This document shows positions 6,579 to 23,149 of a DNA stretch of 56,559 nt, one piece after another. How positions within the stretch are numbered: the stretch's first letter is position 1; every line of letters starts with the position of its first letter. Origin of the DNA: Eubacteriales bacterium (GTDB lineage: Bacteria; Bacillota; Clostridia; Oscillospirales; CAG-272). The stretch lies in assembly GCA_045655765.1 (NCBI GenBank), contig JAZOQA010000057.1:1-56559 (forward strand), read 5' to 3'. The position numbers and the translations under genes were made by a program. The notes under the pieces were generated by a model, which worked only from the letters and a program-made list of their open reading frames with translations, was not told the DNA's origin and did not search any database.

Positions 6579-7616
6579 ATGAACAAAAATATGATATTTT
6601 ACAGAAAGCTACCTATCCCGCAGGAGATAAAGGAAAAATTCCCTCTTACAGCCGCTGTTGCTAAGACAAGAGAGAATAGGGTTGAGCAAATCAGCAAGAT
6701 TTTCCGTGGTGAGGACGACCGTTTGATTCTCGTAATCGGTCCCTGCTCTGCCGACAGAGAGGACGCTGTGCTCGATTATATGTACAAGCTTCGCACAGTC
6801 GAGGAAAAGGTCAAGGACAAAATTATGATAGTTCCTCGAATCTACACAAACAAGCCCCGCACAACGGGTGAGGGCTATAAAGGTATGCTCCACCAGCCCG
6901 ACCCCAACGCCGAGCCGGATATGTTAAAGGGTATAGTGGCGATAAGGAAGCTGCATATGAGAGCTATTGAAGAAACAGGCTTCGGTTGTGCTGACGAGAT
7001 GCTTTATCCCGAGAACTACAAGTACCTATCCGATCTTTTGACTTACGTTGCAGTGGGTGCCCGTTCAAGCGAGGATCAGCAGCATAGACTTACGGCAAGC
7101 GGAATTGACATTCCCGTAGGTATGAAGAATCCGACGAGCGGTGATATTTCCGTAATGATGAACTCTATTAAGGCGGCACAAAGCTCACATATTTTCTGCT
7201 ACCGTGGCTGGGAGGCAAAGACTCTCGGCAACCCTCTTGCACACGCAATATTGAGGGGGTATGTAGATAAATACGGCAAATCCTTCTCCAATTATCATTA
7301 CGAGGACCTCTATTCTCTTTGGGAGGAATATCAAAAGGCAGGGCTTGCAAACCCAGCTGTAATAGTTGACACAAATCACGCAAATTCGGGAAAGAAATAT
7401 TTTGAGCAACCGAGAATTGCAAAGGAAATTCTACACGCCTGCCGTCATTCCTCTGAAATCAAGAGTATAGTCAAGGGACTTATGATAGAAAGCTACCTCG
7501 AAGACGGCTGCCAGAAAATTTCCGCCGACGAGGTTTACGGCAAATCAATCACCGACCCTTGCCTTGGTTGGGAAAAGACAGAGCGTCTTATACTCGAGCT
7601 TGCAGACGTTCTTTAA
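6579..7616 (+). CDS. aroG: 3-deoxy-7-phosphoheptulonate (DAHP) synthase, class I-alpha (AroF/G/H-like)
   Basis: VIGPCS, KPRTT, GARSSEDQQHR and VGMKNPTSG align to E. coli AroG motifs recalled from memory. Confidence 0.88.
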   Translation: MNKNMIFYRKLPIPQEIKEKFPLTAAVAKTRENRVEQISKIFRGEDDRLILVIGPCSADREDAVLDYMYKLRTVEEKVKDKIMIVPRIYTNKPRTTGEGYKGMLHQPDPNAEPDMLKGIVAIRKLHMRAIEETGFGCADEMLYPENYKYLSDLLTYVAVGARSSEDQQHRLTASGIDIPVGMKNPTSGDISVMMNSIKAAQSSHIFCYRGWEAKTLGNPLAHAILRGYVDKYGKSFSNYHYEDLYSLWEEYQKAGLANPAVIVDTNHANSGKKYFEQPRIAKEILHACRHSSEIKSIVKGLMIESYLEDGCQKISADEVYGKSITDPCLGWEKTERLILELADVL

Positions 7617-7660
7617 AATAAAAAATCGTAGACCTTAAACCTTGGGGTCTTATAATTAAA

Positions 7661-7700
7661 ACAGGAGTACTGTGTAAATCACAGTACTCCTGTTCGTTTT
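7661..7700. terminator. bidirectional intrinsic terminator between the aro operon and the convergent transporter operon
   Basis: Perfect 14-bp stem acaggagtactgtg / cacagtactcctgt with a 5-nt loop. It is T-rich on both sides. Confidence 0.75.
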
Positions 7701-7734
7701 TATTTGGTTTTGTCTTAATGCGTAAAGCTTGTTT

Positions 7735-8820
7735 TTATCCAACAAGACCGGAACGCTCGATACCCTGAACGAGGTATTTCTGGCAGAAGAGGTAGATAAT
7801 AACAAGAGGAAAAATAATCATTATTCCCGCTGTGTTATTTATAACGCTCTTATAAACCGTCCAGCCCTTGAAGGTTGCATCCGTCAGGGACGGAGGCGTA
7901 GATTCAAGAATGTCAGGCATAAGGTACATTGCCTCACCCTTGGTAGCTGTTGCGAAGAACATTCCGTGATAGAACTGGTCAGTCCACTGCCACGAGAAGG
8001 AGAAGAGGAAGACTGTAATCATCATAGGAATGGCAAGGGGTATGATAATTCTGAAGAACGTACGGAATACGCCTGAACCGTCAACGTATGCAGACTCTTC
8101 AAGCTCGTCGGGAACGCCCTTGAAGAACTGACGAAGAAGGTAGATGTAAAGACCGTTCTTGAAAGCAAGTCCAAACACAGAGAAGATGAAATAAGGAACG
8201 GGAGTATTTTGAATAGAGACACGTCCTGAATCACTGAATATCTTTGTGAATGCACCAATCGGACCCTCATATCCCCACAGGAATTCCCAAGATTTAGGCT
8301 GCATTACATCAATGTCGGAGAGCCACATCTGAATGGAAAGGCTAAGTGTTTGGTGAGGAACAATCATCGTAAATACGACTATTGCCATTACAAGCTTGTT
8401 GCCCTTGAACTTGAACTTTGCAAGTCCATAACCAACAAGGCACGCAACGAAGGTCTGAATAAGTGCAACCGCAAGAGAAAGAAGTGCTGTGTTGAGAAGT
8501 GCGGTTAAATATTGATTTTCTGTAATCAAGAACTTATACTGCTCGAGGGTGAAGTTCTTTGCGACAAGAGTAACGGTCGGGTCAACGACGTCTGCTTTTG
8601 ACATAAATGAACCTGCAATCTTCGAGATGAATGGGAAAAGAATAACAAAGGAAACACCAAGCATCAATATGAAGCGGAAGATGTTAACAAGTACACGAAT
8701 CCAAGTATTTGATGCCTTGAGCTTTGCTTTCATTTTTTCCTTGAAGGTCATCTTGCCCTCGTAATCAACGTGGATTTTGTTCTTGGTTTCTTTTTTAATT
8801 ACTGTTTTCTGTGAATCCAT
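7735..8820 (-). CDS. carbohydrate ABC transporter permease (MalG-like, second pair), with long N-terminal and loop extensions
   Basis: Multi-TM protein with EAA loop LEESAYVDGSGVFRTFFRIIIPLAIP. AAGGAGG RBS lies 7 nt upstream. Confidence 0.85.
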   Translation of the reverse strand: MDSQKTVIKKETKNKIHVDYEGKMTFKEKMKAKLKASNTWIRVLVNIFRFILMLGVSFVILFPFISKIAGSFMSKADVVDPTVTLVAKNFTLEQYKFLITENQYLTALLNTALLSLAVALIQTFVACLVGYGLAKFKFKGNKLVMAIVVFTMIVPHQTLSLSIQMWLSDIDVMQPKSWEFLWGYEGPIGAFTKIFSDSGRVSIQNTPVPYFIFSVFGLAFKNGLYIYLLRQFFKGVPDELEESAYVDGSGVFRTFFRIIIPLAIPMMITVFLFSFSWQWTDQFYHGMFFATATKGEAMYLMPDILESTPPSLTDATFKGWTVYKSVINNTAGIMIIFPLVIIYLFCQKYLVQGIERSGLVG

Positions 8821-8833
8821 ATTGACTACCTCC

Positions 8834-9790
8834 TTAATCCCTTCTCTGATAGAATATGAACGATGACATAATTGCGGCTACGATTGCGATGATAAGGATT
8901 ACTGAAATGAAATAAATCCAATACATCGCAGATCCTTGACCAAGATTTCGGCTTGCCTCGCCTGCTATGTAAGACATCGCCACGTTCGTTTCTCGTGTAA
9001 AGGAGTCGATAACGGTATACACCGCATTAACAAGTATCATCGGTGAAATCATCGGGAATGTGACCTTCCAGAAGGTCTCCCAGCCGGTTGCACCGTCAAT
9101 ACGGCACGCCTCATAAATTTGAGGGGAGATTGACTGAAGTCCGGCAAGGAAGATAAGCATCTGTACACCAGAATAGTTGATAATGTTGTAAATATTGTTT
9201 ACAAGCTGAACTATATAGACAACAAGCTCTGCACCGACCTTCATATTTTCAAAGAGTGCCGCAACGTCAAACACAGAAATAATATCGCTCGCACCGGAGG
9301 ACCCACCGCCCTCTTGACCTGCAGACTCCATACCGTCCTGAGTTGCTTGTGTTGCAACATCGTTTGAAAGTCCCTCCATAATACCCGTTGCAATAATAAC
9401 GGGGACGAAGAAGATTGCACGGAAGATAGCTCGACCGAGCATCTTCTGGTTCAGAACAACCGCAATGAAAAGAGAGAAGATGATAATTGCGGGTACCTCA
9501 AATATGAGGTTCTGAAGACCTGAGAAAAGCTTTGTAATAAAGTCGGGCGACGTAACAAAAGCATACTTGTAATGCGAGAAGCCTACGAACTCAAGCACAC
9601 GGCGTGAACCGCCTGCGATTGTTTCGAGCTTGAGATTGGTCATACTGTACGTAACCGAGTCAATAAGAATCGGGAGGTACACGAAGAATATTCCGAGAAG
9701 GAAAGGCAGAACGAAAAGGTATCCCGCCTTCGCCTTCTTAGAGTCAAGGGACGCATTACGGTGCCTTTTTGGCAATTTTAATTTTTCCAT
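8834..9790 (-). CDS. sugar ABC transporter permease (MalF-like, second pair)
   Basis: EAA loop IYEACRIDGATGWETFWKVTFPMISP, six TM segments, and a Gly/Ser-rich external loop. Has an AAGGAGGG RBS. Confidence 0.85.
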   Translation of the reverse strand: MEKLKLPKRHRNASLDSKKAKAGYLFVLPFLLGIFFVYLPILIDSVTYSMTNLKLETIAGGSRRVLEFVGFSHYKYAFVTSPDFITKLFSGLQNLIFEVPAIIIFSLFIAVVLNQKMLGRAIFRAIFFVPVIIATGIMEGLSNDVATQATQDGMESAGQEGGGSSGASDIISVFDVAALFENMKVGAELVVYIVQLVNNIYNIINYSGVQMLIFLAGLQSISPQIYEACRIDGATGWETFWKVTFPMISPMILVNAVYTVIDSFTRETNVAMSYIAGEASRNLGQGSAMYWIYFISVILIIAIVAAIMSSFIFYQRRD

Positions 9791-9802
9791 TTTTGTCCCT
9801 CC

Positions 9803-12800
9803 TTAAATTCTCTTAAATTCATACTTACCAAGTATGAATGCTCCGTAACCGAGGTCTACGATAACGCTGTGAATGTTATAGTTAAGAACGAAGTGTACCT
9901 CGTGTCCTGTGGTTGCATTTTTGTAAGTAACCATAACTACGTTGTAATTATTTACGGTATAGTCGGTTTTTACATAATTTTTGCCATCTGTTGATTTGGA
10001 ATCCGTAAGATAATTATACTCCGAGGTATATTCCTCAAGTACATTAAACGATATTTTGTAAGGATCGCTTGAAGCTGCATACTTTTCATCAAAGGACTCC
10101 TCAAGAAGCTCAAGGCGCTTAACTATTGAAGCTCTAATCTCATTTGCATACTTTTCATCAATCTGAATATTGTTTGTGAGATTGAGAAGATTGCCCGCCT
10201 GAGAGGCAATAGCATCTACGTCGATTTCGACCTTAACGCCCTTACCGTACTCTCCCTTGGCATTCATATCTTCATAAGCTGCGATGATATCTTGCTCGAT
10301 CTGTTCCTCAGCTCTGCTTATAAGCTCGTTTACAAGTTTTGTATAAACAAGCTCCTTTTCCTCTGCACCGATTACACGCTCTACGGTCAAAATTTTATGA
10401 TCAACAATTTTATAATTTTGAAGATCTCCAATTGCACCGTTTATAACGGAATACTGCTCTACAACATTTGTAAACCAGTTTTCGTAGCTGACACCGTAAT
10501 ACTTGTTGAGATTCTCATCCTCTTTCATATGATGATGATTGTCGTAGCAAAGAATGTAGTAAAGCGACGCGCCGTTCTCAATAGAGCGGAGAATATCGTA
10601 ATCGGGGTCACCCGAGTAGTTGAGTGCACTGCCGGTATACTTAACGTAACCGTGAAGAACCATTCCAAGGAACGGAACTGCATACGAGGAGTATCTCAAG
10701 TGGTTGGAATCAATGTATGCATCGATAATATGAGATGCATATTCAAGAGAATAAGCATTACCCTTATCAAGCATAATGTCATATCCGTCTTTCTTCATAG
10801 AAGCGAGAATGTCGGATATATACTCACTTGCCTCTTCTCTGTTGATGGGATTTTCATCATCAAAGTTAGAGTTAATATCGGAACCGAGGGTGGAAACGGA
10901 AATGTTCTTTATTCCAAACTCGGAGTAATCATCGTTGAACTCAACGTAGAGTTCTGCAAGAGCATCGGGAGAAACAAGCCTCGTAAGGAATGACTCGTAA
11001 GAGTGAGTGACGGAGTTATAAAGCTGCTTTTCAGCATAACGGTTGTCTATGAGCTTAGAGGAAATACCGTTAGGATAAATTCCATCAAACATCGCCGTAT
11101 TGTTAATATAAATGAAATCGAATTCGGGATAGATACCGAGGTGTGAGCCCTGCTTTGCAGAAACGCTGTTTGCGTAGTTCATAAGTGCCAAGAAGCCATC
11201 CTCGCCACCAACAACCTTATCCCACTTAACCTTAGATGGGTAAGTATATTCCATACCACCGTTAGCAAAGCCGGTAAGACGGAAGTTGATGTTCGTTATG
11301 TTTGTAATTTGTTCTGCAAGCTGATCGTATTCCTTTGCCTTTTGCTCATAAAGAGCCTTAAGCTCAAGATCCTTTTCAGTCTTTTTTGCCTCTTGTCTGT
11401 AATATTCTGCCTTTTCACGTATCAAACGGGTTGCATCAGCAAACTCGTCGTACATAGTACGAATATTTTCAAAGGTGGTGAGGGCTGTGGAAACCTCTAC
11501 GGGGAAAGAAAGAATCTTCTCCAAAATCTCCATAGAACCGAAGACCTCAATGTAAAGAGGAAGGTCGTTGCCAAGGCTTGCAAAGGCTTCAATAGTTCCG
11601 TCTTCGATAAGGTAATCACGGTAGCACTCTGCCATTGCAGAATAGCTTGCGTTGTAATTTGCACCGTAAATCGAGTTAAGTCTTTCGTCTGTGAGCATAG
11701 TGATCTTAGTTATGAAAGATCCGCTATACTTAGTCTCGGCAACCATCGTATACTCGCCAAGTCCACTGACCGAAAGGGTTTGAGAAAGGTCGTACGTATC
11801 GGACGGATAGGGACGGTATACGGGGTATATCGTTCCAAAGCCCGAGGTGGTACATTCAAATCTAAAGTTAAGGTGTGCAAGAGCCGCACCCTCTTCTATG
11901 ATTGCAAAGAATCCGTTTTGAAGCTTGGAAGTTCCTACAAGCTCCTGCATTTCAGGAGACACACTCTCAGTATATACCGCACCATATACAGGCATAGTAA
12001 CCTGCTCACGATAGTCACCTGTAATTGCGATGATATCGGAATATGCGTGGTCTATACCGTAAACGGGTGCCTTGAATGACACAATACCACCATTGTAGAA
12101 ATCAGAAATGCTTACTATAGTTCCACTTCCATCGGGGTAGAAAATATATCCATCGAGAGGATTCTTCTGGTTTCTGTTATAAGTACCGGGTCTTTCGGGA
12201 TTTTCATCAAGGTAGAAAAGATCACTTGCACCGAAATACTTAAGCGGAGTTATAGAATAAAGAATGTAAGTGGATTCATCAAACGTGATAGAGTTTGCGG
12301 GGAGATTCACCGAAAGGGTGCCATCCTCGTTAAACGTATACTCAAGAGCACATCTGAATACGGGGCGTGCTACAAACTCGTGAACGTAACCGCATTCCCT
12401 TTCATCCCTATACATATCATTAAAGCTGTAGGTGGGAGTGTCGTTGTATACGCAATACTTTTCAATGATTTCCTGAGTTTGAGCAAGGACTCTGTAGTTT
12501 GTATTGCTGATATTACAAATTACGTTATAGCCTGTGGTTGATGCTTTATAGCTGTTTGTAAACTCGAGAATCGCACCGTAGACATCCTGCATCGGGTTCG
12601 AGTATTCGAAAATTTTAACAATGTAGTACTCAATAAGAGAGAGATACTGACCTATTGCATCAACATTAAGCTTGCCGTTATCGCTGTAAAAGAGAAGTTC
12701 TGCGTAGGTGCAAGCCTCAACAACACTTCCGCAAGTAGAGCAAACGTACTCACCGTCTGCGTTGGGTGTCTTAACCTTCTCACCTACTGCGTGCTTTCTA

Positions 12801-13759
12801 CAGTAATGAACCGTTTCGTCAAGATTAAGAAGCTGAGAGAAGTTCTCAAAGCGTCTATTGAACTCATCACGTGCACCGGAGGTTACAAACTCGGTCTTCT
12901 CCTTATCAAGCTCAATAGTTCCCTTGCCCATTACGCTGGCTGCAAATTGATAAAGCTTTCCGTCACGGTAGGGAGATTTATTGTTGTCTACGTTCATACC
13001 GTATGCAAGAAGGTTCTTAAACGCTCTGTTTGCATTTCTGCCTGTATAATAGTCAAGCTGGCTTGCAGAGGTTGCCGTTTCAGGGCTGGTTGCCTCGGCA
13101 TCGTGCTTCTGGAAGAGCTTGTCGGCCTCAGCAATATAGTTCTCGAGAAGCGGAAGAACCAAACACTCCATATAACGATCCTGATGCATTGCACCGGGAA
13201 CAAGATATCTGAGTGTTGTATCACCGATGGTATAGCTTACACGAAGACCTCCGTTGATTGCAGACACGTAAATCTGTCCGTTGGTTGCGGCACCCGTAAA
13301 GCTGTCCATAGTAATAGGTGTTTCAGACGAGTTGGAAATTGAGTTGTACTCAAGCTCGATTTGGCTCACAAGAGTCGTCGTAGGGTTGGTAAGCTCACGG
13401 TAATCGTAGGGATTACTTGTAAGCACCTGCCCTGTCAGGTTGTTCTGATAATACATAAAGCCCGTATAGACGTTTACGTAAACAGAGTACATACCGTTTT
13501 TAGAGGTTGCTGACATAAGCTGTCCTGCAGCCTTCTCTGCTTCAAGCATCTGCTCCGCAGAGTTATACTTAAGCTGTTTTGCAAAAGTAAGTACGTTAAT
13601 GAAGTCTTCTTCATTTTTAGCATACATATTCGCTGCCGTTATAGAATCAGGCTTTTCTGCACTGTTAGCAGCAAATGCTAAAGTGGGGAATGCTACTATG
13701 ACCGCAGTTGAAAGCATAATCGCCGCAAGCAGCATAGATAATATTCTTTTAAATTTCAT
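9803..13759 (-). CDS. 1318-aa exported protein of unknown function. From memory it resembles DUF5696-type, possibly glycoside-hydrolase-like, proteins.
   Basis: Sec signal peptide (AFPTLAFA/ANS). Motifs FYPDGSG, MPVYG, FFAIIEEGAALA, LPLYIEVFG and LTGFANGGM. Has an AGGAGG RBS. I cannot name a catalytic signature. Confidence 0.8.
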   Translation of the reverse strand: MKFKRILSMLLAAIMLSTAVIVAFPTLAFAANSAEKPDSITAANMYAKNEEDFINVLTFAKQLKYNSAEQMLEAEKAAGQLMSATSKNGMYSVYVNVYTGFMYYQNNLTGQVLTSNPYDYRELTNPTTTLVSQIELEYNSISNSSETPITMDSFTGAATNGQIYVSAINGGLRVSYTIGDTTLRYLVPGAMHQDRYMECLVLPLLENYIAEADKLFQKHDAEATSPETATSASQLDYYTGRNANRAFKNLLAYGMNVDNNKSPYRDGKLYQFAASVMGKGTIELDKEKTEFVTSGARDEFNRRFENFSQLLNLDETVHYCRKHAVGEKVKTPNADGEYVCSTCGSVVEACTYAELLFYSDNGKLNVDAIGQYLSLIEYYIVKIFEYSNPMQDVYGAILEFTNSYKASTTGYNVICNISNTNYRVLAQTQEIIEKYCVYNDTPTYSFNDMYRDERECGYVHEFVARPVFRCALEYTFNEDGTLSVNLPANSITFDESTYILYSITPLKYFGASDLFYLDENPERPGTYNRNQKNPLDGYIFYPDGSGTIVSISDFYNGGIVSFKAPVYGIDHAYSDIIAITGDYREQVTMPVYGAVYTESVSPEMQELVGTSKLQNGFFAIIEEGAALAHLNFRFECTTSGFGTIYPVYRPYPSDTYDLSQTLSVSGLGEYTMVAETKYSGSFITKITMLTDERLNSIYGANYNASYSAMAECYRDYLIEDGTIEAFASLGNDLPLYIEVFGSMEILEKILSFPVEVSTALTTFENIRTMYDEFADATRLIREKAEYYRQEAKKTEKDLELKALYEQKAKEYDQLAEQITNITNINFRLTGFANGGMEYTYPSKVKWDKVVGGEDGFLALMNYANSVSAKQGSHLGIYPEFDFIYINNTAMFDGIYPNGISSKLIDNRYAEKQLYNSVTHSYESFLTRLVSPDALAELYVEFNDDYSEFGIKNISVSTLGSDINSNFDDENPINREEASEYISDILASMKKDGYDIMLDKGNAYSLEYASHIIDAYIDSNHLRYSSYAVPFLGMVLHGYVKYTGSALNYSGDPDYDILRSIENGASLYYILCYDNHHHMKEDENLNKYYGVSYENWFTNVVEQYSVINGAIGDLQNYKIVDHKILTVERVIGAEEKELVYTKLVNELISRAEEQIEQDIIAAYEDMNAKGEYGKGVKVEIDVDAIASQAGNLLNLTNNIQIDEKYANEIRASIVKRLELLEESFDEKYAASSDPYKISFNVLEEYTSEYNYLTDSKSTDGKNYVKTDYTVNNYNVVMVTYKNATTGHEVHFVLNYNIHSVIVDLGYGAFILGKYEFKRI

Positions 13760-13774
13760 TTTTACCTCCTACTG

Positions 13775-15961
13775 CTACGAAAGATTATCAATAATCTCAC
13801 TACCGAGAGTTACAAGGAAGCTTGACATCTTAACAACAAGTGCCGAGAACAGGATAGCAACGAACATAATAACTACCATTGCTACAATAGTTCCGATAAT
13901 TGTTATTATATTCTTGGGAATAGAATAACCGTGAGTTACAACCATTCCAAAGAAGATGAGAAGTCCTGCCCAAATGTAACCGATGGTTACAAGAAGAGAA
14001 ACTATAGAGCCGCCTGTTACAATGTTAGTAAGTGCGGTTGATAAAATTACCATTACAGGTACGGGTGCTATTGCATAACAGGTTGCAATATAGATATCCT
14101 TGAAGCTACCCTCTCCGTCAAACAGTGTCGTAAGACACCAGTTCGAAACAATCCAAAGAAGAACGGGAACAAGCACCGCCGTCATTTGAACAAGAATAGA
14201 CGTGGATTCACCACGGGGGTTGAACGCATATCCCTGTCCAATAGACTGATAGAAGAATGCAATAACTGTAAGAGTTAAGAACGTAGTTGCTGCTCTTACA
14301 GAGCCTCGCTTCTCATGCTTAAGATCCCAGAATCCGTCGAACGGATGGAATACGAGATGGAATACGTATAACATTTCCTCGCCATAGGTCTTTTTGCCGA
14401 CCTTGAGCGCGGTTGCTTTGTTCTTTTTCTTTGCCCACCCAAGGAACTTGAAGAAAAATACAAGAACAACTATGACTAAGATAACCATAGGAATCATCCA
14501 CTTAGAGGTGAATTCCTTGCTAATTGCGTTCTGTGCCTTAGTCCAGAAATCAACCTCGTAAGCTACCTCGAGCATTTCCTTAGCCTCTTCGTAGTCACCC
14601 TTGTTATAGAGTGCCTTACCTATACCTATATATGCAAGGTCGAAGTTGTTGTTCATAGTAAGAACGTCCTGCCAATACTCAATCGACTGCGAATAGTTAT
14701 GATTATTCTCGTTTTCAAGAGCCTTGATCAGAGTTTTGCAATACTCGGTGGGAGAGAAGACAACAAGCTTGTCGCCCGTGGTTGTCTTGTCCATTACAAT
14801 AAGACGGTACTCTGTATCCCCCTCTGCCGTAACGTATTTCTGATACGTCATAGCCTGGGGGTTTTCGAAGTTTCCAAGCTGAACACCCATATCTCCAAAT
14901 GCAAAGAGAAGATCTCCGTTGGAGTTATATGTAAATGTTCTTGTTCTTTGTATTGTCGTGTTACTGTCAAGAATGGTCCAAGAGCCCTCAGGACCTATTG
15001 CAATGTCGGTAATCTTAGAAAGTTCAGCCGTAGAGAGAACTCCTACTTCTCCACCGGGATCGAAGAAGCCGTTACGCTTCATAATCTCCTTACCCATAGA
15101 GTTAAGCTTTTTTACGGGTGAGTAGGTTGGAGACTTAGATTCAATTGTTGCAAGCTGTTCCGTGAGGTCACTTTGAGTGGTAAAGTTGATAGTTGCGTAA
15201 ACAAATCCGAACTCATCAACAGTTACGTTGTTATAAGCCGTAGGAATATTAGATGCCTGTCTTTCAAGCTGCTCATCGGATTGGAATATACTCCAAATAC
15301 GGTCAAGAACGCTATAAGTAACCTTCTGTGCACCGATAAAGCCCGTAAACGAGCCGTCGCTTGCAAGAACTATGATACCCTCAAAGCAACGCTGAGAGGA
15401 GATGAAGATTCTTCCGTAAAGGTCAACGGCAATTGCCTGAGGAACGAATGCGTCATCATCAATAATTCTGTCATCAGGCTTATAAATTGTCTTTACGTAA
15501 TTATATGCTTCGTCAAAAACTACGATCTGCTTGTTTCCTGTGTCACATACGTAAATCTTTTTGCCGATTGCAGTGTCTGAAGCTGTAACGAAAAGACCCT
15601 CCGGAGCTGAAAGAGTACGAACGTCTCCGCTGTCATCGATATACTCGCTGATAGATGCAACCTGCTCGTAATCCTTGTTGAGAACTATAATGCGGTTGTT
15701 GGTCTTGTCAGCAAGATAGATGTTTCCGTCCTCGTCAGAAACGATGTCACGGGTTTCCGGAGAAATTGCCGTTGCGGGAATTCCCATTCCGGTATAGGTT
15801 CTCGAATCACTTACCCTGTATGCGTGGGGAGACTTAAGAGGTTCACCGTCAATGGAATAGGTGTAGGTCTCGTAGGGGTCAAATGCAGATACGGAGAACG
15901 TTCCGAAAAGCATTATAGCAATTACGGCAAATATTAATATTTTAGTAATTTTACTTTTCAT
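13775..15961 (-). CDS. membrane protein: signal peptide + NHL-type beta-propeller + TPR + C-terminal Yip1-like multi-TM domain
   Basis: NHL-like repeats (NNRIIVLNKDYE, GNKQIVVFDEAYNY, GRIFISS). A TPR-like segment (IGIGKALYNKGDYEEAKEML). One TM helix followed by a basic stretch (AKKKNK). Then HPFDGFWDLKHEKRGS plus five TM segments typical of bacterial Yip1 proteins. Has an AAGGAGGA RBS. Confidence 0.8.
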   Translation of the reverse strand: MKSKITKILIFAVIAIMLFGTFSVSAFDPYETYTYSIDGEPLKSPHAYRVSDSRTYTGMGIPATAISPETRDIVSDEDGNIYLADKTNNRIIVLNKDYEQVASISEYIDDSGDVRTLSAPEGLFVTASDTAIGKKIYVCDTGNKQIVVFDEAYNYVKTIYKPDDRIIDDDAFVPQAIAVDLYGRIFISSQRCFEGIIVLASDGSFTGFIGAQKVTYSVLDRIWSIFQSDEQLERQASNIPTAYNNVTVDEFGFVYATINFTTQSDLTEQLATIESKSPTYSPVKKLNSMGKEIMKRNGFFDPGGEVGVLSTAELSKITDIAIGPEGSWTILDSNTTIQRTRTFTYNSNGDLLFAFGDMGVQLGNFENPQAMTYQKYVTAEGDTEYRLIVMDKTTTGDKLVVFSPTEYCKTLIKALENENNHNYSQSIEYWQDVLTMNNNFDLAYIGIGKALYNKGDYEEAKEMLEVAYEVDFWTKAQNAISKEFTSKWMIPMVILVIVVLVFFFKFLGWAKKKNKATALKVGKKTYGEEMLYVFHLVFHPFDGFWDLKHEKRGSVRAATTFLTLTVIAFFYQSIGQGYAFNPRGESTSILVQMTAVLVPVLLWIVSNWCLTTLFDGEGSFKDIYIATCYAIAPVPVMVILSTALTNIVTGGSIVSLLVTIGYIWAGLLIFFGMVVTHGYSIPKNIITIIGTIVAMVVIMFVAILFSALVVKMSSFLVTLGSEIIDNLS

Positions 15962-15970
15962 ATATCCTCC

Positions 15971-16846
15971 TTAATCCTTCATTCCGGAAGATCCCATCGT
16001 TTCGATAATCTTACTCTGGTTGAAGACAAAGATTGCGATAGGAACAAGCATCATAATAACCGTCGCCGCTGCTGCTGCACCGGAACGTGCGATACCTCCG
16101 CTTAAAATCTGACCTATTGCATAGTTGAAGGTCTTCAATTCTTCCGAATGTACGTATACGGATGCACCTGCGTTCCAAAGAGACTTGAAGCACTCGATAG
16201 TAAGCGTGAGCCACGCAGGCTTAACCATCGGCATTGCGATAATCAGGAATGTTCTGAACTCACTTGCACCATCAAGACGTGCAGATTCAAGTACAGTATC
16301 CGGCACCGATGACTCCATAAACTGCTTCATAAGGTAAAGACCCATAGTTGTTGCCATCGAGGGAACGATGATCGAAAGATACGTGTCAATCCAGCCAAAT
16401 GCAGAAAGAATGATGAAGTGGGTGACCTGGTTAACGGTTGAATGGAACATAAGTGACATAACTATAACTTGGAAGATTGCGTTTCTTCCAGGGAATCTGA
16501 GCTTTGCGAGTGAGTATGCCGCCATAGAAGCGAAAATTAGGTTTCCAACGGTGCCGCAAAGTGTGAGAAACACGGTGTTAAATATGTATCTCGAAAAAGG
16601 TACCCACGAGTCACCCATCAATGTAAATAAATCCTTGAAGTTGTCAAAGGACGGGTCTACTACGTAAAACTTGGGAGGGAACATAAAGAGTTCGTCCAAA
16701 GGCTTTAAGGACTGAATGACAACGTAGTACATAGGCAGGAACATAAATGCTCCAAGAAGTACAAGTATGAAGGTTATACCGCCGTCTCCGCCCTTTGAAC
16801 GGTTGAGAACGACTCTATGCCCTCTTGTTCTTAATTTCTTTGACAT
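15971..16846 (-). CDS. carbohydrate ABC transporter permease (MalG-like, first pair)
   Basis: EAA loop VLESARLDGASEFRTFLIIAMPMVKP. The likely start is ATG 16846 (TAATATG junction with the upstream gene); the ORF-track start at 16855 is GTG. Confidence 0.85.
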   Translation of the reverse strand: MSKKLRTRGHRVVLNRSKGGDGGITFILVLLGAFMFLPMYYVVIQSLKPLDELFMFPPKFYVVDPSFDNFKDLFTLMGDSWVPFSRYIFNTVFLTLCGTVGNLIFASMAAYSLAKLRFPGRNAIFQVIVMSLMFHSTVNQVTHFIILSAFGWIDTYLSIIVPSMATTMGLYLMKQFMESSVPDTVLESARLDGASEFRTFLIIAMPMVKPAWLTLTIECFKSLWNAGASVYVHSEELKTFNYAIGQILSGGIARSGAAAAATVIMMLVPIAIFVFNQSKIIETMGSSGMKD

Positions 16847-16847
16847 A

Positions 16848-17798
16848 TTACTCACCTACCTTCGAGAGTGCCTTCTTTATAACGATGTTACAGCCAAACA
16901 TTATTATAAACAGAATGACTGCAATCGCCGAGGCATAACCGATTTCATAACGGCTGCCACCGTAGTCTGAAAGGTGGTGCATAATCGTATGCGCCGCATA
17001 ATCAACCGACGGGAAGCCGCAAAGTGCGTCAACGACCGCACCGAAGCCGAATGCCTGTGTAATAGAGAGAACCGCACCGAACATAAGCTGCGGACGCATT
17101 GTTGGGAGCGTGATATACCAAAGCTCCTGCCAACGGTTTTTAATTCCGTCAACCGCAGCCGCCTCATACATAGAACGGTCAATCGTCTGGAAGCCTGCGA
17201 TGAATGACAGGAACGCAGTACCGAGCGAGGTCCAAAGTGCGACGACAATACAAAGCGGCATAACGTAATCTGCATTGTCGAACCAAAGGATTGGCTGGGA
17301 AATTAGGTTCCATTTCATCAGCACTGCATTCGCCCAACCGTAAGAGTCAGAGGAGAACAGTGTCTTCCAAATCAGGTAAACCTGACCGGAAATTGAGGGT
17401 GCGTAGAAGATAAGTGTTACAACAGCACGAATCTTGGGGGGGAGCTCGTTAATAAACCAAGCTATTAAAAGTGAAAGTATGTATGATACAGGACCCGTAA
17501 CGCACGCAAATATCAGAGTGTTCTGACATGCAAGAATGAAAATTTCGTCATCAAGGAAAAGCCTTGCGAAATTCTCGTGCCAAACGAAATCGGGTATATC
17601 AAGCATATTGAAGTTAGTTAAGCTGAGTATCATCGACAGAACAACGGGAAGGACTGTAAAGATGATGAAAAGCAGAAGGAACGGTGCAAGCATAAAGTAC
17701 GCCGTCTTATTCTTTTTCATCTCTTTCCATGTCCACTGCCATTTAGACATCTCGCTGCGCTGTGTAGGACGCTTAGCCTCTGTCTTTGAACGTGACAT
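16848..17798 (-). CDS. sugar ABC transporter permease (MalF-like, first pair)
   Basis: EAA loop MYEAAAVDGIKNRWQELWYITLPTMRP, six TM segments, and an AAGGAGA RBS. Confidence 0.85.
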   Translation of the reverse strand: MSRSKTEAKRPTQRSEMSKWQWTWKEMKKNKTAYFMLAPFLLLFIIFTVLPVVLSMILSLTNFNMLDIPDFVWHENFARLFLDDEIFILACQNTLIFACVTGPVSYILSLLIAWFINELPPKIRAVVTLIFYAPSISGQVYLIWKTLFSSDSYGWANAVLMKWNLISQPILWFDNADYVMPLCIVVALWTSLGTAFLSFIAGFQTIDRSMYEAAAVDGIKNRWQELWYITLPTMRPQLMFGAVLSITQAFGFGAVVDALCGFPSVDYAAHTIMHHLSDYGGSRYEIGYASAIAVILFIIMFGCNIVIKKALSKVGE

Positions 17799-17822
17799 TT
17801 GATTATCTCCTTTTCGTTAGTC

Positions 17823-20800
17823 TCAAGCGTTAGGTGTAGGATCGATTTCTTCTTCACCTGTTGTGGGATTCTTGTAACCCACGTACCAGATACCTCTGTC
17901 CTTAAACTCCTCACGCTTTCTCGTAATTTCGGAGTTAATCGCATCAATGTAGTTCTGAAGAGCTTCGACAGCATTAGCACCGTTATTTACCGCATCGAGG
18001 AATGCGAACTTCATATATCTATTATAAATGTAAGAACCAGGATAGTTTACTATGGAGCACATATTACTCATCTGATCCTGAATTGCAAGCTTTTCACTTG
18101 CTGTCCAAGACAGATCCTGAATAGCCTGAAGGTTTGCCGTCTCGTACTTTGCAGAAGGACCGATGAGGGCAACCATTCTGTTTCCGTACTCTGCCTGAAC
18201 GCTAGCGTTGCTGTTCCACTGAGAGAACTGCCAAGCAGCAAGAAGGTTGTCGCAGCCACGAAGAATTACGGTTGCTCCAACTCCTGCAAGAGACTCGTAA
18301 TGAATCTCCTCTACTCCGTCGCCGTCAGCATCTCTGAACAAGCCGGGAAGCGAGCAGAATTCCCAAAGACCTTCAATTTCCGTTGCGTAAACTACGAGCT
18401 GGTTGTAGAGTGCGCAGTAGCTACCAACAAGGATAGGCATTTCACCAGTTCTGAAACGGTTTGCAGCATCGTATGCTACGGGGAATGAATAGTCGCTATA
18501 AAGACGACACACAAACTCGAATGCTTCAAGAGCGATATCGGAGTCGAGGTCAATTCTTGCACCTGCGTACTTAGAATCGTACTCATCGCTGTTGGTGTAT
18601 TTCCAAAGGTTACCGCCCTTTTGATAAATCATAAAGTCAAGAGCGGAAATATAGTCAACACCGATAGACATATTATTAGACTGGATTATAGGCAAGCAAG
18701 ACAGAAGGTCATCCCAAGTCTCGGGAACGCCTATGTTCAGGTTTGCAAGAACATCCATACGGTAGAACATCATTGCGAAGTTCATCGTCTGAGGAACGCC
18801 GTACGTTACGCCAAGAAGCTGAAGCGTATCCATTGCAGCCTGTGTAAATACCTGCTTCTCTTCACCGTTAAGCACTTGTGGGCTATTTTCGGTAAGAATT
18901 ACGTCAGAATAAGGCTTTGTGATGAACGAAAGCTCCGCTCCCTCCTTTACAGACTTCCAAGCGGCAATTTCCTTGGGATCTGTAACGGTGACGGTAACGG
19001 TCGTTTTGTCAGGATTAAGATGAGTATAATAAGCCTCACCCAAATTTTCATCATAAGCGTACTCAACAAGCACAGCCCCCTCTTTGAGGCTCTTTTCGGG
19101 AGAAGAGATGGTAACTGTTACGTAATCATAGTTACCGTTGGTTTCATAACGGTAAGTATAATGAGTTGTAACGAAAATTTTATTTTCATCTGCATCGAGT
19201 CGGTGAGAATCATTTCCGTTCATTCCTATTACGGCACCACGGATAGCATAGTTAATTACGTCCGCAGCAGCAAGACCGATATAAACGTCAGGACCCTTGC
19301 CCGAAAGAATGGAGGGAAGAAGAGTTCCGCCCGTAACAAGCTTAAGCGCAGCGGGCGTACCCGTGCTGTTGGAATAACCGTTTTGAGCGTCAATCATTGA
19401 ACGCCAAATCTGGGACTGGTCTCGACCGGTCGCAAGCCAAACGTCAATCTTTTGACTGTCATCGGAAATCTCGGTGGTAAGACCCATCTCATCATAATCT
19501 ACCCAGAACGATGCAAAGAACGAAAGAATCTCAAACCAAAGAGATTCCCAGAAGCCTGCATCGGACTCACGGGGTTGCTCGGATGCGTTAGCGGGAACAA
19601 AGAATATTGCGTCAACCATAATTGTGCTCTGCTTTGAGCTGTTAATCCAAGAGCCGAGCGTTCCAAGGTAGGATTTAAGAGATCCCATATTCTTCGCTAC
19701 GTTATCTCCTCTGTCAGAGCCCATTTGAAGAAGCAAAAGTGCAATGGTGTCGAGCTGTGCAATGTGCGAACCGTTAGTTCCGCAAAGAGCCTCAAGCTCC
19801 GACTTTACTGCTGCAAGCTCCTTTGCTTGAACAAGGAAATTATAGAGCACATCAGGCATAATATCGTCAAATCTGTAATCACGGTTTTCATCCGGATCAG
19901 CTCCTGTGAGCTGAAGAATCTGTAGATAGCAATCATTAATAACATTAAGGGAAGCTTCTACACGCTGAATGCTGTTTTTGAGAGAGCCAAGAGAGCACTC
20001 GAGGTAAATGGTATACTGTACGCCCTCTTCAAAATAGAATTCATAAGCGTTTCCTTTGCCGTCGCCTATAAATTCAGACTGCCATTCCTTGCTGTAATTA
20101 TACTTTATGTCATTTGCTTCCTTAAAAGGAACTGTAGGAGTTCCGTCAGCAAGACCATACTCGCCACCGGCAAGCTTAATGGTACGGCAAACATACATAC
20201 CCTGCAGAGCATTCTGCAAGAATCGCATAGAAATCTTGTACATACCGTCTTTGGTGACGTAGAAATTATACGCTGCCCACTGTCCAACCGAACTATATCC
20301 GTTTTCTCCTATTACGTTATAAAGCTGAGAAGAGTGGTTGGTGGGGAACGTAGCCGCTGAGGTATTATCATTGGATGGAGCAACCGAAGAATCGGAAACA
20401 AAATCAGGAAATTCTGCCTCAATACGAACAGTTCCGTTACCAACAGGTGCGGCGGAATGCTCCGCACGGTAGTCGGCGTAGGACTTTGTGGAGTCTGCCG
20501 TAGCATCACCCTCCTTAACCTCTGCAGGAATAAGCTCTATGGACTTAACAATCACAGGGTCACGCTCTGCAATAAGAGAGAACTCGTGATCACCCTTTGA
20601 CATATAGAACATAAAGTTATCCGTATAATATCCGCTGGAATCCTTGAAGTAATAGGTCTTCCAAGCGGGGACGGCAACTGCCTCGGGTGCCATAGAGTTG
20701 TTATTCATATCAGCTTGAATGGTATAAGTTTTCGTAACACGGAAAAGCTTATCACCCTCGTACTCATAGGAAACAACGGTCTTTACATACGCACCAGGGT

Positions 20801-21533
20801 TCTCAACAGGATCGCTATAAGAGGTGACGGGCGGCTTATATTCCTCTTTGCCCGTTACGTCAACACGATCGGTTTTTGAGTTTGAATATACCCACGACTT
20901 GTCAAGAGTAACATATGCAGCTTCCGTAAAGGTAATCTGACCGTCAAGCATAAACTTACGCTCAATGGAGCTGGTGCTGCTTTCATCGGTAACAACGGTG
21001 AAGTATTCAATTTTAATATAATACATTCCGACATTCGAAACGTCGGGAATGCTGAACTGCCAAGTCGCAGTTCCTATTGAGGGGAGATAAACCGAGTTTG
21101 CAATATCATCTTGGTCGAAATCCTCCCAATTTTTTGAATTCTTCTCCATTTCCTCAGCAAAGAAGGGCTTCAGCTTGTAAGTCCCGTCGTCGTTGAATAC
21201 GGGATTGCCCTGCGAGTCGGTCTCGTAAAGAACGCCCGCATTCTCCTTCATTGCATCGTTAGTTCCGTAATTCGAAAACTCGAAGATATCGGAATTGTTC
21301 ACGTCGATGACAATATTGCTCACCGGCTTTTGCTTCTGTTGAGAAGCCCAAGCCTTGAGGTAATCCTCATACGACTTAGTTCCGACGAGGGAGTTCATCT
21401 CGTCGAGAGTGGATGCCGTACCGTTCTCCTTGTATTCGCCGTTGGCTGCACTGACGGTAAGTCCAAGTGCACTAAGAAGCGTCGCAAGGGTAAGAACAAG
21501 ACAAATCACTCTTTGAGTCAATTTTCTTTTCAT
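17823..21533 (-). CDS. giant extracellular solute-binding protein (family-1 SBP fold, C-terminal ~540 aa) behind a ~690-aa N-terminal extension containing two CBM-like beta-sandwich regions
   Basis: Type-I signal peptide (LTVSA/ANG, no lipobox Cys). Residues ~150-340 and ~365-515 resemble CBM6/35-type modules (VRIEAEFPDF...GQWAAYNFYVTKDGMYKISMRF). From ~695 onward the sequence is SBP-like (KIDVWLATG..., GVTYGVPQTMNFAMMFYRMDVL, PETWDDL). Has a GGAGGA RBS. Confidence 0.8.
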   Translation of the reverse strand: MKRKLTQRVICLVLTLATLLSALGLTVSAANGEYKENGTASTLDEMNSLVGTKSYEDYLKAWASQQKQKPVSNIVIDVNNSDIFEFSNYGTNDAMKENAGVLYETDSQGNPVFNDDGTYKLKPFFAEEMEKNSKNWEDFDQDDIANSVYLPSIGTATWQFSIPDVSNVGMYYIKIEYFTVVTDESSTSSIERKFMLDGQITFTEAAYVTLDKSWVYSNSKTDRVDVTGKEEYKPPVTSYSDPVENPGAYVKTVVSYEYEGDKLFRVTKTYTIQADMNNNSMAPEAVAVPAWKTYYFKDSSGYYTDNFMFYMSKGDHEFSLIAERDPVIVKSIELIPAEVKEGDATADSTKSYADYRAEHSAAPVGNGTVRIEAEFPDFVSDSSVAPSNDNTSAATFPTNHSSQLYNVIGENGYSSVGQWAAYNFYVTKDGMYKISMRFLQNALQGMYVCRTIKLAGGEYGLADGTPTVPFKEANDIKYNYSKEWQSEFIGDGKGNAYEFYFEEGVQYTIYLECSLGSLKNSIQRVEASLNVINDCYLQILQLTGADPDENRDYRFDDIMPDVLYNFLVQAKELAAVKSELEALCGTNGSHIAQLDTIALLLLQMGSDRGDNVAKNMGSLKSYLGTLGSWINSSKQSTIMVDAIFFVPANASEQPRESDAGFWESLWFEILSFFASFWVDYDEMGLTTEISDDSQKIDVWLATGRDQSQIWRSMIDAQNGYSNSTGTPAALKLVTGGTLLPSILSGKGPDVYIGLAAADVINYAIRGAVIGMNGNDSHRLDADENKIFVTTHYTYRYETNGNYDYVTVTISSPEKSLKEGAVLVEYAYDENLGEAYYTHLNPDKTTVTVTVTDPKEIAAWKSVKEGAELSFITKPYSDVILTENSPQVLNGEEKQVFTQAAMDTLQLLGVTYGVPQTMNFAMMFYRMDVLANLNIGVPETWDDLLSCLPIIQSNNMSIGVDYISALDFMIYQKGGNLWKYTNSDEYDSKYAGARIDLDSDIALEAFEFVCRLYSDYSFPVAYDAANRFRTGEMPILVGSYCALYNQLVVYATEIEGLWEFCSLPGLFRDADGDGVEEIHYESLAGVGATVILRGCDNLLAAWQFSQWNSNASVQAEYGNRMVALIGPSAKYETANLQAIQDLSWTASEKLAIQDQMSNMCSIVNYPGSYIYNRYMKFAFLDAVNNGANAVEALQNYIDAINSEITRKREEFKDRGIWYVGYKNPTTGEEEIDPTPNA

Positions 21534-21596
21534 TGTTTTTCCTCCGTGTTTTTTTGTGGTGAGGCCTTTCGGTAAAGGTCGCCCTCGCCGACGATG

Positions 21597-21650
21597 TCAC
21601 CAAGCCGCCCCATTCCGTCAAAGACTTTGTAAGGTCGGGCTGCTTGGTGA
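21597..21650 (-). promoter_or_regulatory. long hairpin in the 5' leader of the transporter operon
   Basis: 14-nt arms, tcaccaagccgccc (21597-21610) and gggctgcttggtga (21637-21650), with one mismatch and a 26-nt loop. It lies between the predicted TSS (~21684) and the start codon (21533). Confidence 0.35.
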
Positions 21651-21690
21651 AACCGTCGCACATACCTACGTGCCGCATTTACACGTAAAG

Positions 21691-21719
21691 ATTATAACAT
21701 ACGGGAACTAAAAAGTCAA
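21691..21719 (-). promoter_or_regulatory. sigma-A promoter of the seven-gene transporter operon
   Basis: On the minus strand: TTGACT (21719-21714), 17-nt spacer, TATAAT (21696-21691). Confidence 0.6.
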
Positions 21720-21870
21720 TACTTGCATATCGTGCATAAAATATGTTTTTAAGGTAAAAGGAAGCAAAAAATACCCATTTTTTAGCAATGTAAACTATAG
21801 TTAACATTGAAAAAGTTCGGCAGTTACTCCCCTGTGGCAAAAAGGTAAATGAAAACGACGTTTTAGGCAC

Positions 21871-21902
21871 TAAAAAACACGCATTTCATCAAAAATGCGT
21901 GT
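21871..21902 (-). terminator. intrinsic terminator downstream of mnmA
   Basis: 10-bp stem acacgcattt / aaatgcgtgt, followed on the minus strand by TTTTTTA. It lies ~190 nt after the mnmA stop. Confidence 0.55.
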
Positions 21903-22087
21903 TGACGTAAATTGTATTTACTTATTTTTTGTTGTTTTTGAGTTTTTTTGCTTTGCACAAGGTATATACACACTTTTTGTCTATTTTGCACAATTTGTGA
22001 ACGTTTTTTTCTACACACAGATTCCTTTAAAAAACATACAAAAGTCTCGAAAATACGACGTTTAATCCTTTTTGAGATAAAAATCAA

Positions 22088-23149
22088 TTAAGAAACGGAG
22101 TCTATAAATCCTCCTGCAATAACGGTTTCTCCGTCATAAATCACAGCGGATTGACCCGCAGTAACAGATGGCTGAGGCTTCGAAAGGTGAAGCGTTGCCC
22201 TGCCCTCCGAATGGAAAACAACACGTGCCTCCGTCTGTCTTGCCTGATAGCGAAGCTTGACAAAAGCCGTGCGTTCCTTTCCAAATTCGGGTTCTTTTAT
22301 TCCCGAAAAAACCATACCGGATATGTGTACCGTTCTGCTCATTTTAGGAGACGTGGAAAGCGTCACTGTATTGCGTATTGGGTCAATATCCGTAACAAAG
22401 GCACGCTCGCCCAGTGAAACTCCAAGCCCCTTACGCTGTCCGACAGTATATCTTATTATTCCTTTATGCCGTCCAAGCACCCGACCTGACGCATCCACAA
22501 AATCGCCGCTTGGCGATACTCCTCTTTTTCGTTCAACGAAAGAGGCATAGCCGTCATCAGGGCTTATAAAGCATATCTCCTGACTGTCACCCTTGTCAGC
22601 GGCGGACAGCCCCTCGGTGCGAGCAAGAGCTCGAACGTCGTTTTTTGTGAGCTCCGAAAGCGGGAAAATTATCATTTTCAGCTGTTCTTGAGAAAGCCGC
22701 CAAAGCATATAAGTCTGATCCTTTGAAGGATCCGCCGCTCGTGCAACGGCATACCGCTCCTCACCGCAATCCTCTACTCTTACTACCCTTGCATAATGTC
22801 CTGTGGCAATCTTATCAAAGCCGTGCTCCTTTGCAAACTCACAAAGAAAGTGAAACTTCACCGCTCTGTTGCATATAATGCACGGATTTGGCGTTCTTGC
22901 CGCCGTATACTCGTCAACAAAGCTTTCAACAACCTCACGCTCAAAGGCTTCGGTACAGTCAATAATATGAATGGGAATTCCAAGCTCTCTTGCGGCAAGC
23001 TCCGCCTCGGAGGTCTCAGTGTATTTATGCATTTTTAGCACCGCACCCTCAACCTCAAAGCCCTCGTCCAAAAGCAATCTTGCGGCATAGGTGCTGTCAA
23101 TTCCGCCACTCATACCTAAAAGAACACGCATCGCTTTTCTGTCCGTCAC
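22088..23149 (-). CDS. mnmA: tRNA 2-thiouridine(34) synthase
   Basis: PP-loop LLGMSGGIDSTYAA, the catalytic Cys region PNPCIICNRAVKF, and GHYAR. Confidence 0.92.
   Translation of the reverse strand: MTDRKAMRVLLGMSGGIDSTYAARLLLDEGFEVEGAVLKMHKYTETSEAELAARELGIPIHIIDCTEAFEREVVESFVDEYTAARTPNPCIICNRAVKFHFLCEFAKEHGFDKIATGHYARVVRVEDCGEERYAVARAADPSKDQTYMLWRLSQEQLKMIIFPLSELTKNDVRALARTEGLSAADKGDSQEICFISPDDGYASFVERKRGVSPSGDFVDASGRVLGRHKGIIRYTVGQRKGLGVSLGERAFVTDIDPIRNTVTLSTSPKMSRTVHISGMVFSGIKEPEFGKERTAFVKLRYQARQTEARVVFHSEGRATLHLSKPQPSVTAGQSAVIYDGETVIAGGFIDSVS

Follow-up and report, generated by a model that had tools for sequence, protein, structure and literature searches.

The DNA analysed here, a 56-kb window comprising 56,559 nucleotides of contig JAZOQA010000057.1 from an Eubacteriales bacterium, contains a minus-strand array of seven genes, g1 to g7, which encode a giant solute-binding protein (SBP), two pairs of CUT1-type permeases, an NHL/TPR/Yip1 membrane protein and an exported DUF5696 protein (Table 1). 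These seven genes are one conserved, ancient co-linear unit, inherited together in a fixed order. The array probably belongs to an ancient, modular glycan-uptake cassette of the Bacillota that is organised at the cell surface and energised by a shared ATPase. A first-pass annotation of the window, made from the letters alone, had proposed a dedicated machine for the capture, processing and uptake of a polymer, probably a glycan, and a single conserved unit centred on the capture and uptake of glycans is supported; the annotation's further description of the array as an undescribed system was too strong. The novelty is narrower than that, as the cassette is widespread, is already annotated piecemeal in RefSeq and has in one genus been covered by transcript and regulon studies, in the form of the xylan degradation locus (XDL) of Caldicellulosiruptor bescii, which has the same layout.

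The core of DUF5696, the family of g5, retrieves 3335 clusters at 50% identity with E≤1e-3 and 719 with E≤1e-30, and a scan of GTDB species-representative genomes gave 262 carriers. The loci of 80 of these 262 carriers were fetched; all come from gut or rumen metagenome-assembled genomes (MAGs), labelled Clostridia, Eubacteriales, 'uncultured Ruminococcus' or Oscillospiraceae, with one labelled Coriobacteriaceae. When the seven window proteins were compared by tblastn with 82 loci, 63 of them complete and 19 cut by contig ends, the order g1 to g7 was found to be kept in every complete locus (63 of 63), and the cut loci hold contiguous subsets of the same order. Both permease pairs are intact, as the first-pass annotation had suggested: neither is lost or degenerate in any of the 82 loci. 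The objection that one pair might commonly be absent or degenerate thus falls, because both are always present and intact, and conservation within the cassette is highest in the first pair. In fact, the median identity of the best high-scoring segment pair (HSP) is 87% for g3 (71 loci) and 84% for g2 (68 loci), the two being 80–94% identical within the sampled clade, as against 61% for g6 (82 loci), 61% for g7, 57% for g4, 51% for g1 and 44% for g5. More distant DUF5696 members of 934, 1012, 1956 and 2300 amino acids (aa) also lie in the same cassette. The full cassette in the bin labelled 'Coriobacteriaceae bacterium' (Actinomycetota; locus L043, CAVEOF010000005.1) is nearly identical to those of two loci labelled Clostridia and Eubacteriales (L051 and L075), so that this bin is probably mis-binned or mislabelled and does not reflect a transfer.

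Other Bacillota were reached by tblastn against plasmids and by a homologue search seeded with a Butyrivibrio protein, which together gave five loci, four from isolates and one from a Roseburia sp. MAG. Each of the seven window proteins has an orthologue at the corresponding position in these loci, which represent Butyrivibrio, Roseburia, two Paenibacillus species and Cohnella, with identities of 41–56% for g2, 35–57% for g3 and 22–32% for g5. In Butyrivibrio fibrisolvens (L088) the cassette is preceded by histidine kinase/response regulator genes and a glycoside hydrolase (GH) gene of family GH43, and followed by two SBP genes. The order is LacI, SBP, cassette and GH113 in Paenibacillus alkalitolerans (L090), LacI, GH53, cassette, SBP and GH53 in Roseburia sp. 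(L091), and LacI, SBP, cassette and GH26 in Cohnella nanjingensis (L092), while in Paenibacillus cellulosilyticus (L089) a ugpC-type ATPase gene stands first and the cassette follows. Four of the five cassettes therefore adjoin GH43, GH53, GH26 or GH113 genes together with regulators, and this setting in polysaccharide utilisation loci agrees with the earlier proposal that the machinery serves a glycan substrate. Since orthologous loci have such different GH contexts, the cassette appears to be an ancient module that has been reused for chemically different polysaccharides. A neighbourhood survey across Clostridia and Bacilli, which had been suggested at the first pass, thus finds DUF5696, Yip1 and doubled permease pairs occurring together.

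Table 1. Features of the seven-gene array in the window.
Feature	Position	Strand	Description
g1	17823-21533	-	1236 aa; giant solute-binding protein, exported
g2	16848-17798	-	316 aa; MalF/UgpA-type CUT1 permease, first pair
g3	15971-16846 (ORF from GTG: 15971-16855)	-	MalG/UgpE-type CUT1 permease, first pair
g4	13775-15961	-	728 aa; NHL/TPR ectodomain and Yip1 membrane domain
g5	9803-13759	-	1318 aa; exported DUF5696 protein, predicted GH129/GH31-like fold
g6	8834-9790	-	318 aa; MalF-type CUT1 permease, second pair
g7	7735-8820	-	361 aa; MalG-type CUT1 permease, second pair
Promoter	21691-21719	-	sigma-70-type TTGACT-17-TATAAT with TG extension
Structured 5' leader	21534-21684	-	about 150 nt; minimum free energy -55.6 kcal/mol
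Intrinsic terminator	7660-7694	bidirectional	15-bp stem and T-run; common to the convergent DAHP synthase gene
ORF, open reading frame.

All four permeases pass the Pfam cut-off for BPD_transp_1 (34–47 bits against 26.4), and their top NCBIfam matches are UgpA/UgpE, MalF/MalG and GlcT/GlcU. Each pair thus provides the two BPD_transp_1 membrane subunits with a cytoplasmic EAA loop that characterise a CUT1 importer. The four EAA loops quoted in the first-pass annotation are all present and are of the EAA-x3-G type, namely MYEAAAVDG in g2 (45.8 bits; UgpA 1e-15), VLESARLDG in g3 (UgpE 2.7e-23), IYEACRIDG in g6 (45.8 bits) and LEESAYVDG in g7 (47 bits; UgpE 2.6e-14). An export function was rejected because permeases of type I with EAA loops serve import. 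Nor can one pair be a recent duplicate of the other: g6 is just 27% identical to g2 and g7 just 24% identical to g3, and the duplication is therefore ancient. Two features were noted in the second pair, a Gly/Ser/acid-rich low-complexity loop between hydrophobic segments at about residues 140–180 of g6 (DGMESAGQEGGGSSGASD) and a 40-residue Lys-rich N-terminal extension of g7; to our knowledge, neither is a feature of canonical CUT1 permeases.

The MalK/MsmX-type ATPase of a CUT1 importer was found neither in the window nor beside the cassette in related MAG loci, and a scan for Walker A and LSGGQ motifs gave no MsmX-type gene in the window or adjoining the cassettes of related loci. The sole ABC ATPase domain in the window belongs to an exporter-type half-transporter (26224–28167). 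Matches to the ATPase motifs about 20 kb away from some cassettes proved to be unrelated, those in locus L002 being genes of a branched-chain amino-acid-type ABC system. The first-pass observation that the array comes with no importer ATPase or regulator accordingly holds throughout the 56-kb window. The ATPase is presumably supplied in trans, by a shared MsmK/MsmX/UgpC-type protein encoded elsewhere in the genome. Such borrowing, anticipated at the first pass, agrees with the ugpC gene at the head of the P. cellulosilyticus cassette and with the shared MsmK of C. bescii, which is essential there and has been demonstrated by genetics (PMC8579813).

g1 has a signal peptide of the signal peptidase I (SPase-I) type and no lipobox. 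An AlphaFold2 (AF2) model of its residues 37–1236 (predicted local distance difference test (pLDDT) 81.7, predicted template modelling score (pTM) 0.77) contains two beta-sandwiches (model residues 112–300 and 333–478), a helical bundle and a C-terminal class-I sugar SBP domain at about residues 696–1236 (window 17826–19448). Sugar SBPs, 5ysf and 5ci5 among them, head the Foldseek list (E about 1e-10, target template modelling score (TMt) 0.59–0.72), and the matches to the C-terminal fold include a sophoro-oligosaccharide-binding protein and MalE-type proteins. The C-terminal ca. 540 residues of the model thus have the genuine fold of a class-I (MalE-like) SBP, and the orthologues of g1 carry the SBP domains SBP_bac_1 and SBP_bac_8. 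At the sequence level g1 has no Pfam match of its own, and gives weak matches to GanS and to SBPs of the PDB at residues 890–1020. The first-pass description of 'CBM-like regions' in this protein found no support: beta-sandwiches are modelled, but the N-terminal region matches no Pfam family, whether of carbohydrate-binding modules (CBMs) or any other, even at E≤10. The fold-search list was saturated by SBP matches.

g4 begins with an SPase-I-type signal peptide without a lipobox, followed by an NHL beta-propeller and TPR ectodomain (about residues 27–480) and a transmembrane helix (489–507). The NHL repeats score 29.2 bits against a cut-off of 20 and the TPR matches, at residues 420–470, are weak; matches in the PDB are to TPR and NHL only, those to NHL domains being 6d69 and TRIM71. 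The Yip1 domain (PF04893; residues 535–702, window 13856–14359) scores 54.9 bits against a cut-off of 28.6 with the entire profile covered, and hydropathy places four or five hydrophobic segments within residues 587–710, as in a polytopic domain. In L088, L090, L091 and L092 the NHL and Yip1 parts are encoded by separate, slightly overlapping genes. This pattern, fused here and split elsewhere, argues that NHL and Yip1 act together.

g5 is a member of DUF5696 (PF18952; 365 bits against a gathering cut-off of 25.6, E 8e-109), with an SPase-I-type signal peptide, no lipobox and a conserved core at residues 432–1318 (window 9806–12466). Its fold was taken from an AF2 model of P0030, a 48%-identical orthologue in the same context, built with a 60-sequence alignment (pLDDT 86.2, pTM 0.80). 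Foldseek against the PDB ranks GH129 first, with the Zobellia 3,6-anhydro-D-galactosidase (5opq/8rzk; E 2.7e-20, TMt 0.63) ahead of the alpha-N-acetylgalactosaminidase NagBb of B. bifidum (5wzp; E 4e-18); over all three GH129 structures (5opq, 8rzk and 5wzp) the match probability is 1.00 and the TMt 0.58–0.64. These are followed by GH31 (sulfoquinovosidase, YicI and MYORG; E 1e-9 to 1e-6) and then by GH36. The predicted structure has the N-terminal beta-sandwich, (beta/alpha)8 barrel and C-terminal beta domains of the GH129 fold, and DUF5696 would thus share its overall core fold with GH129/GH31. However, it is set apart from these families by a sequence identity of 8–12% between the P0030 model and its Foldseek relatives, by extra coiled-coil and helical insertions, and by the position of its gene, which is always flanked by Yip1 and a permease pair. 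When the PDB was searched by sequence and by profile with g5 and its family, there was no match to 5opq or 5wzp, and nothing meaningful. Structural comparison, as had been proposed, thus points to a GH129/GH31 fold for the 1318-aa family and to a sugar-SBP fold for the 1236-aa protein.

Residue conservation was computed across 41 diverse DUF5696 members. The only invariant acids are D425, D457 and E948 of P0030, corresponding to D543, D570 and E1061 of g5; N934 is also invariant, and R861, N888, Y890, H923, K966, W982 and H1008 are nearly so (P0030 numbering). The acids that follow barrel strands, D768, D779 and D792 of P0030 (D881, D892 and D905 of g5), are invariant in the clade of the window. 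D543 and D570 are 27 residues apart in g5 and their counterparts 32 in P0030, a spacing that we take to resemble that between nucleophile and acid/base in GH101/GH129. An attempt to place the catalytic residues by secondary structure and spacing was ambiguous between the barrel acids and the invariant D543/D570 pair. Catalysis by g5 is putative and unproven, the protein being enzyme-like by its modelled fold. The first-pass annotation had envisaged a large exported enzyme-like protein that processes the substrate; the fold upholds the first half of that description, whereas the second half is not upheld, with three acids invariant and the barrel acids variable.

Residues ca. 205–430 of g5 (window 12466–13150, minus strand) form a lineage-specific insertion that is missing from the 1200-aa orthologues. 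It holds a cysteine cluster (HYCRKH, YVCSTCGSVVEAC) with a weak zinc-ribbon match in Pfam (E 0.007), which is unusual in an exported protein. The DUF5696 proteins of L085 (10001–16903) and L087 (10001–15871) reach 1956–2300 aa through long C-terminal extensions, and in L087 two large GDSL/SGNH esterase-like genes, which may encode carbohydrate esterases, lie directly downstream.

In the usual model of Gram-positive glycan uptake, one SBP and two permeases operate with a shared ATPase. The cassette is like the CUT1 importers (MalEFGK2, UgpBAEC and MsmEFGK; TCDB 3.A.1.1) in its MalF/MalG-type permeases, EAA loops, class-I SBP fold and ATPase in trans. It departs from them by a doubled translocon, by an SBP that is about three times the normal size, with some 650 extra N-terminal residues and no lipid anchor, and by two obligatory extra partners, the Yip1-anchored propeller protein and the DUF5696 protein with its predicted glycosidase fold. 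A Yip1-family protein, YknW, is also encoded with an ABC transporter in the YknWXYZ system of B. subtilis, where it acts as an accessory subunit. YknYZ is, however, an exporter of the MacB type that has a membrane-fusion protein, YknW lacks an NHL/TPR ectodomain, and the direction of transport and the substrate are unrelated to those of the cassette. Gram-positive polysaccharide utilisation loci (gpPULs), as in Roseburia, Eubacterium and Butyrivibrio, cluster a regulator, an ABC importer and GHs; they are defined by a regulator, a transporter and carbohydrate-active enzymes (CAZymes), and this definition does not specify a seven-gene module. In L088 and L090–L092 such loci have the cassette as their transporter core, whereas the window cassette has neither regulator nor CAZymes. 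In the library that was searched, no paper mentions DUF5696 or PF18952, and nothing relevant was found on a YIP1 family protein with an SBP or on NHL with an ABC permease.

The closest described system is the XDL of C. bescii, no component of which has been biochemically characterised. Its gene order is xloEFG-X-GH129-axoFGE-xylanases (Rodionov et al. 2021, PMC8579813); by annotation these are, as in the window, an SBP, two CUT1 permeases, an NHL protein, a putative extracellular GH129 and two CUT1 permeases, and the locus again has no ATPase gene. It comprises Athe_0174–0181 in C. bescii and Csac_2419–2412 in C. saccharolyticus (PMC8579813, PMC12285236, PMC5658599). The co-transcribed C. bescii genes are induced on xylan and Avicel and have been assigned to the XynR and AraR regulons (PMC8579813), binding of XynR to the XDL operator has been validated (PMC12285236), and the C. 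saccharolyticus orthologues respond to xylan-rich biomass (PMC5658599). The XDL differs from the window cassette by a second SBP (AxoE), xylanases and XynR/AraR control, all of which the window lacks. Among the 120 matches listed in a third homologue search, with the Butyrivibrio query, the named ones are Lachnospiraceae and Paenibacillaceae, and no Caldicellulosiruptor could be identified.

On our preferred reading, g1 and g5 would be exported by Sec without a lipid anchor and held at the membrane by g4, the sole dedicated membrane-anchored ectoprotein. g1 would capture oligosaccharides released from a polymer and hand them to the highly conserved g2/g3 translocon, while g5 would bind, and possibly trim, glycan chains and feed the g6/g7 translocon, which in other species would also be served by an adjoining ordinary SBP; the shared ATPase encoded elsewhere would power both translocons. 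Because the cassette serves loci for such different polysaccharides as xylan, mannan and galactan in other bacteria, specificity would lie in the binding and ectodomain parts and not in the architecture. In the gut Clostridia lineage of the window, the cassette occupies an isolated position amid housekeeping genes and is headed by a strong promoter and a structured leader. More tentatively, the seven proteins might form a single supercomplex for glycan import on the Gram-positive cell surface, in which a Yip1/NHL-TPR scaffold holds the giant non-lipidated SBP and a GH129-derived subunit over two different translocons, so that long oligosaccharides would be captured, threaded or trimmed, and imported without release. 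Such a supercomplex would be a substrate-agnostic chassis for use by Bacillota in loci for xylan, mannan, galactan and other glycans, a functional analogue of SusC/D of the Bacteroidota, and the main carbohydrate gate of the uncultured lineage.

Several observations weigh against one glycan-uptake machine with a catalytic g5. The window contains no MsmX-type importer ATPase, regulator, second SBP or CAZyme, and so offers no tie to a substrate; the link to the C. bescii XDL is one of annotation and gene order, not of sequence; and g5 matches no GH family of Pfam even at E≤10, so that it is not a GH129 member by sequence. A single complex of the seven proteins is conjectural, and two functionally separate importers are possible. 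In the latter case, g1-g2-g3 and g6-g7 would be independent neighbouring CUT1 importers, the second with an SBP encoded elsewhere, g4 and g5 would be accessory or unrelated surface proteins, and there would be no supercomplex. The ancient divergence of the permease pairs, with 24–27% identity, fits such an arrangement, as do the two separate predicted transporters, Xlo and Axo, of the published annotation (PMC8579813). So do the additional SBPs: the earlier statement that there is only one binding protein is true of the window, but an extra ordinary SBP of 455–631 aa lies beside the cassette in L088, L090, L091 and L092, and C. bescii has AxoE. Independent neighbours would, however, be expected to separate over such an evolutionary distance, whereas the order is invariant and the spacing tight in >90 loci across Clostridia and Bacilli, including lineages without a nearby second SBP, and no locus was found with just one half. 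We therefore regard two unconnected importers as unlikely.

Another alternative, which we consider doubtful, keeps the cassette together and takes DUF5696 to descend from a glycosidase but to have lost catalysis; as a glycan-binding or receptor subunit it would dock on g6/g7 in place of an SBP, which would explain why a single SBP serves two translocons. The gene order can indeed be read as two tandem half-modules, SBP-permease-permease followed by NHL/Yip1-DUF5696-permease-permease, and a second SBP was found neither in the window nor in the loci of its clade. The barrel acids are not kept family-wide: roughly half of the members from Lachnospiraceae and Paenibacillaceae have A or T in their place. 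Moreover, alpha-linkages are the target of GH129, GH31 and GH36, whereas the enzymes encoded beside the cassette in other loci degrade beta-glycans, and the presence of one family in loci for chemically different beta-glycans is hard to square with a single alpha-glycosidase activity. Given this mismatch, g5 may target side chains with alpha-linkages, may have changed its specificity, or may be a subunit that binds without catalysis. Nevertheless, the 41 members share D543, D570 and E1061, as well as residues of Arg, His and Asn, without or almost without exception, as would be expected of an active site, and other loci do have a second SBP at hand. A lineage-specific housekeeping role in the envelope, in which the cassette recycles or remodels the cell's own wall or capsule polysaccharide in place of nutrient glycans, appears very unlikely. 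The cassettes of the window, L001, L002 and L083–L087 lie among core genes (nifS-nifU-mnmA, shikimate or pyrimidine) with a near-consensus promoter and no regulator or GH nearby, and PGA_cap genes lie downstream in L086, as such a role would allow. Against it stand the location of four of the five other-Bacillota cassettes (three isolates and the Roseburia MAG) in plant-polysaccharide loci with LacI or two-component regulators, the xylan induction of the C. bescii locus of the same layout, the importer type of the BPD_transp_1 permeases, and sugar-catabolic genes (ROK kinase, aldose epimerase) near some cassettes.

If the mechanism of the glycan-uptake cassette were solved, two large 'unknown' families would gain a function, and the competition of Firmicutes for xylan, mannan and galactan would become clearer. 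It would also help to explain what an uncultured lineage of gut Clostridia feeds on and improve transporter annotation, the locus being at present split in two in Caldicellulosiruptor, which is relevant to biofuels and has genetic tools.

The expression signals are consistent with one transcription unit. The ORF listing confirms seven minus-strand genes running from 21533 down to 7735, and the tight spacing, ribosome-binding sites, promoter, leader of about 150 nt and single terminator reported at the first pass were all recovered by inspection of the sequence. The gaps from g1 to g7 are 24, -8 (+1 with the ATG start of g3), 9, 15, 12 and 13 nt, and a GGAGG-type ribosome-binding site precedes all seven genes, the weakest being that of g3. 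The g3 protein is 294 aa long from GTG and 291 aa from ATG at 16846; the ATG is the likely start, as it yields a TAATATG junction and matches a 291-aa orthologue in L001. The promoter is the top match within 7400–22200 (11 of 12 positions) and is kept in L001 and L004. The terminator at 7660–7694 is the sole convincing one downstream of the array, and a separate terminator (21903–21876) ends the upstream mnmA gene.

At the nucleotide level the leader is 87% identical to those of L001 and L004 and so more conserved than the neighbouring coding sequence, the best-HSP amino-acid identity of g1 being 66%; one base pair has undergone a compensatory change, C-G to T-A. An Rfam search of the leader and intergenic region matched no family. 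With a covariance model built on the leader, the window, L001 and L004 were the only clear matches, next to a marginal one in L026; since the model finds only the nearest relatives, the leader is not a cassette-wide riboswitch. Matches of the whole intergenic region in other loci by nhmmer were discounted, their composition bias being as large as the score. The leader may be a clade-specific cis-regulatory element or RNA, and not a general feature of the cassette.

The rest of the 56-kb window is made up of housekeeping genes, including those of the shikimate pathway, nifS-nifU-mnmA, polC, isoprenoid genes, a tmRNA and a T-box. At a distance of 3.6 kb upstream of the operon, a plus-strand gene (25160–26122) codes for a 320-aa member of the ROK family; the protein is probably a sugar kinase, as it is too short for an N-terminal helix-turn-helix. 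Genes for ROK, RpiR and aldose epimerase are likewise found close to the cassette in L083 and L085, and these neighbours give a faint hint of a hexose-containing substrate. On the minus strand, a 671-aa ORF (52574–54589) fuses an AP_endonuc_2 domain (xylose-isomerase-like TIM barrel) with an AMP-binding (adenylate-forming) domain, an uncommon combination. Also on the minus strand, the tmRNA gene (47521–47886) scores 163 bits and the T-box leader (56066–56308) 123 bits, the latter lying upstream of a LeuA/HMGL-like gene (54596–55984).

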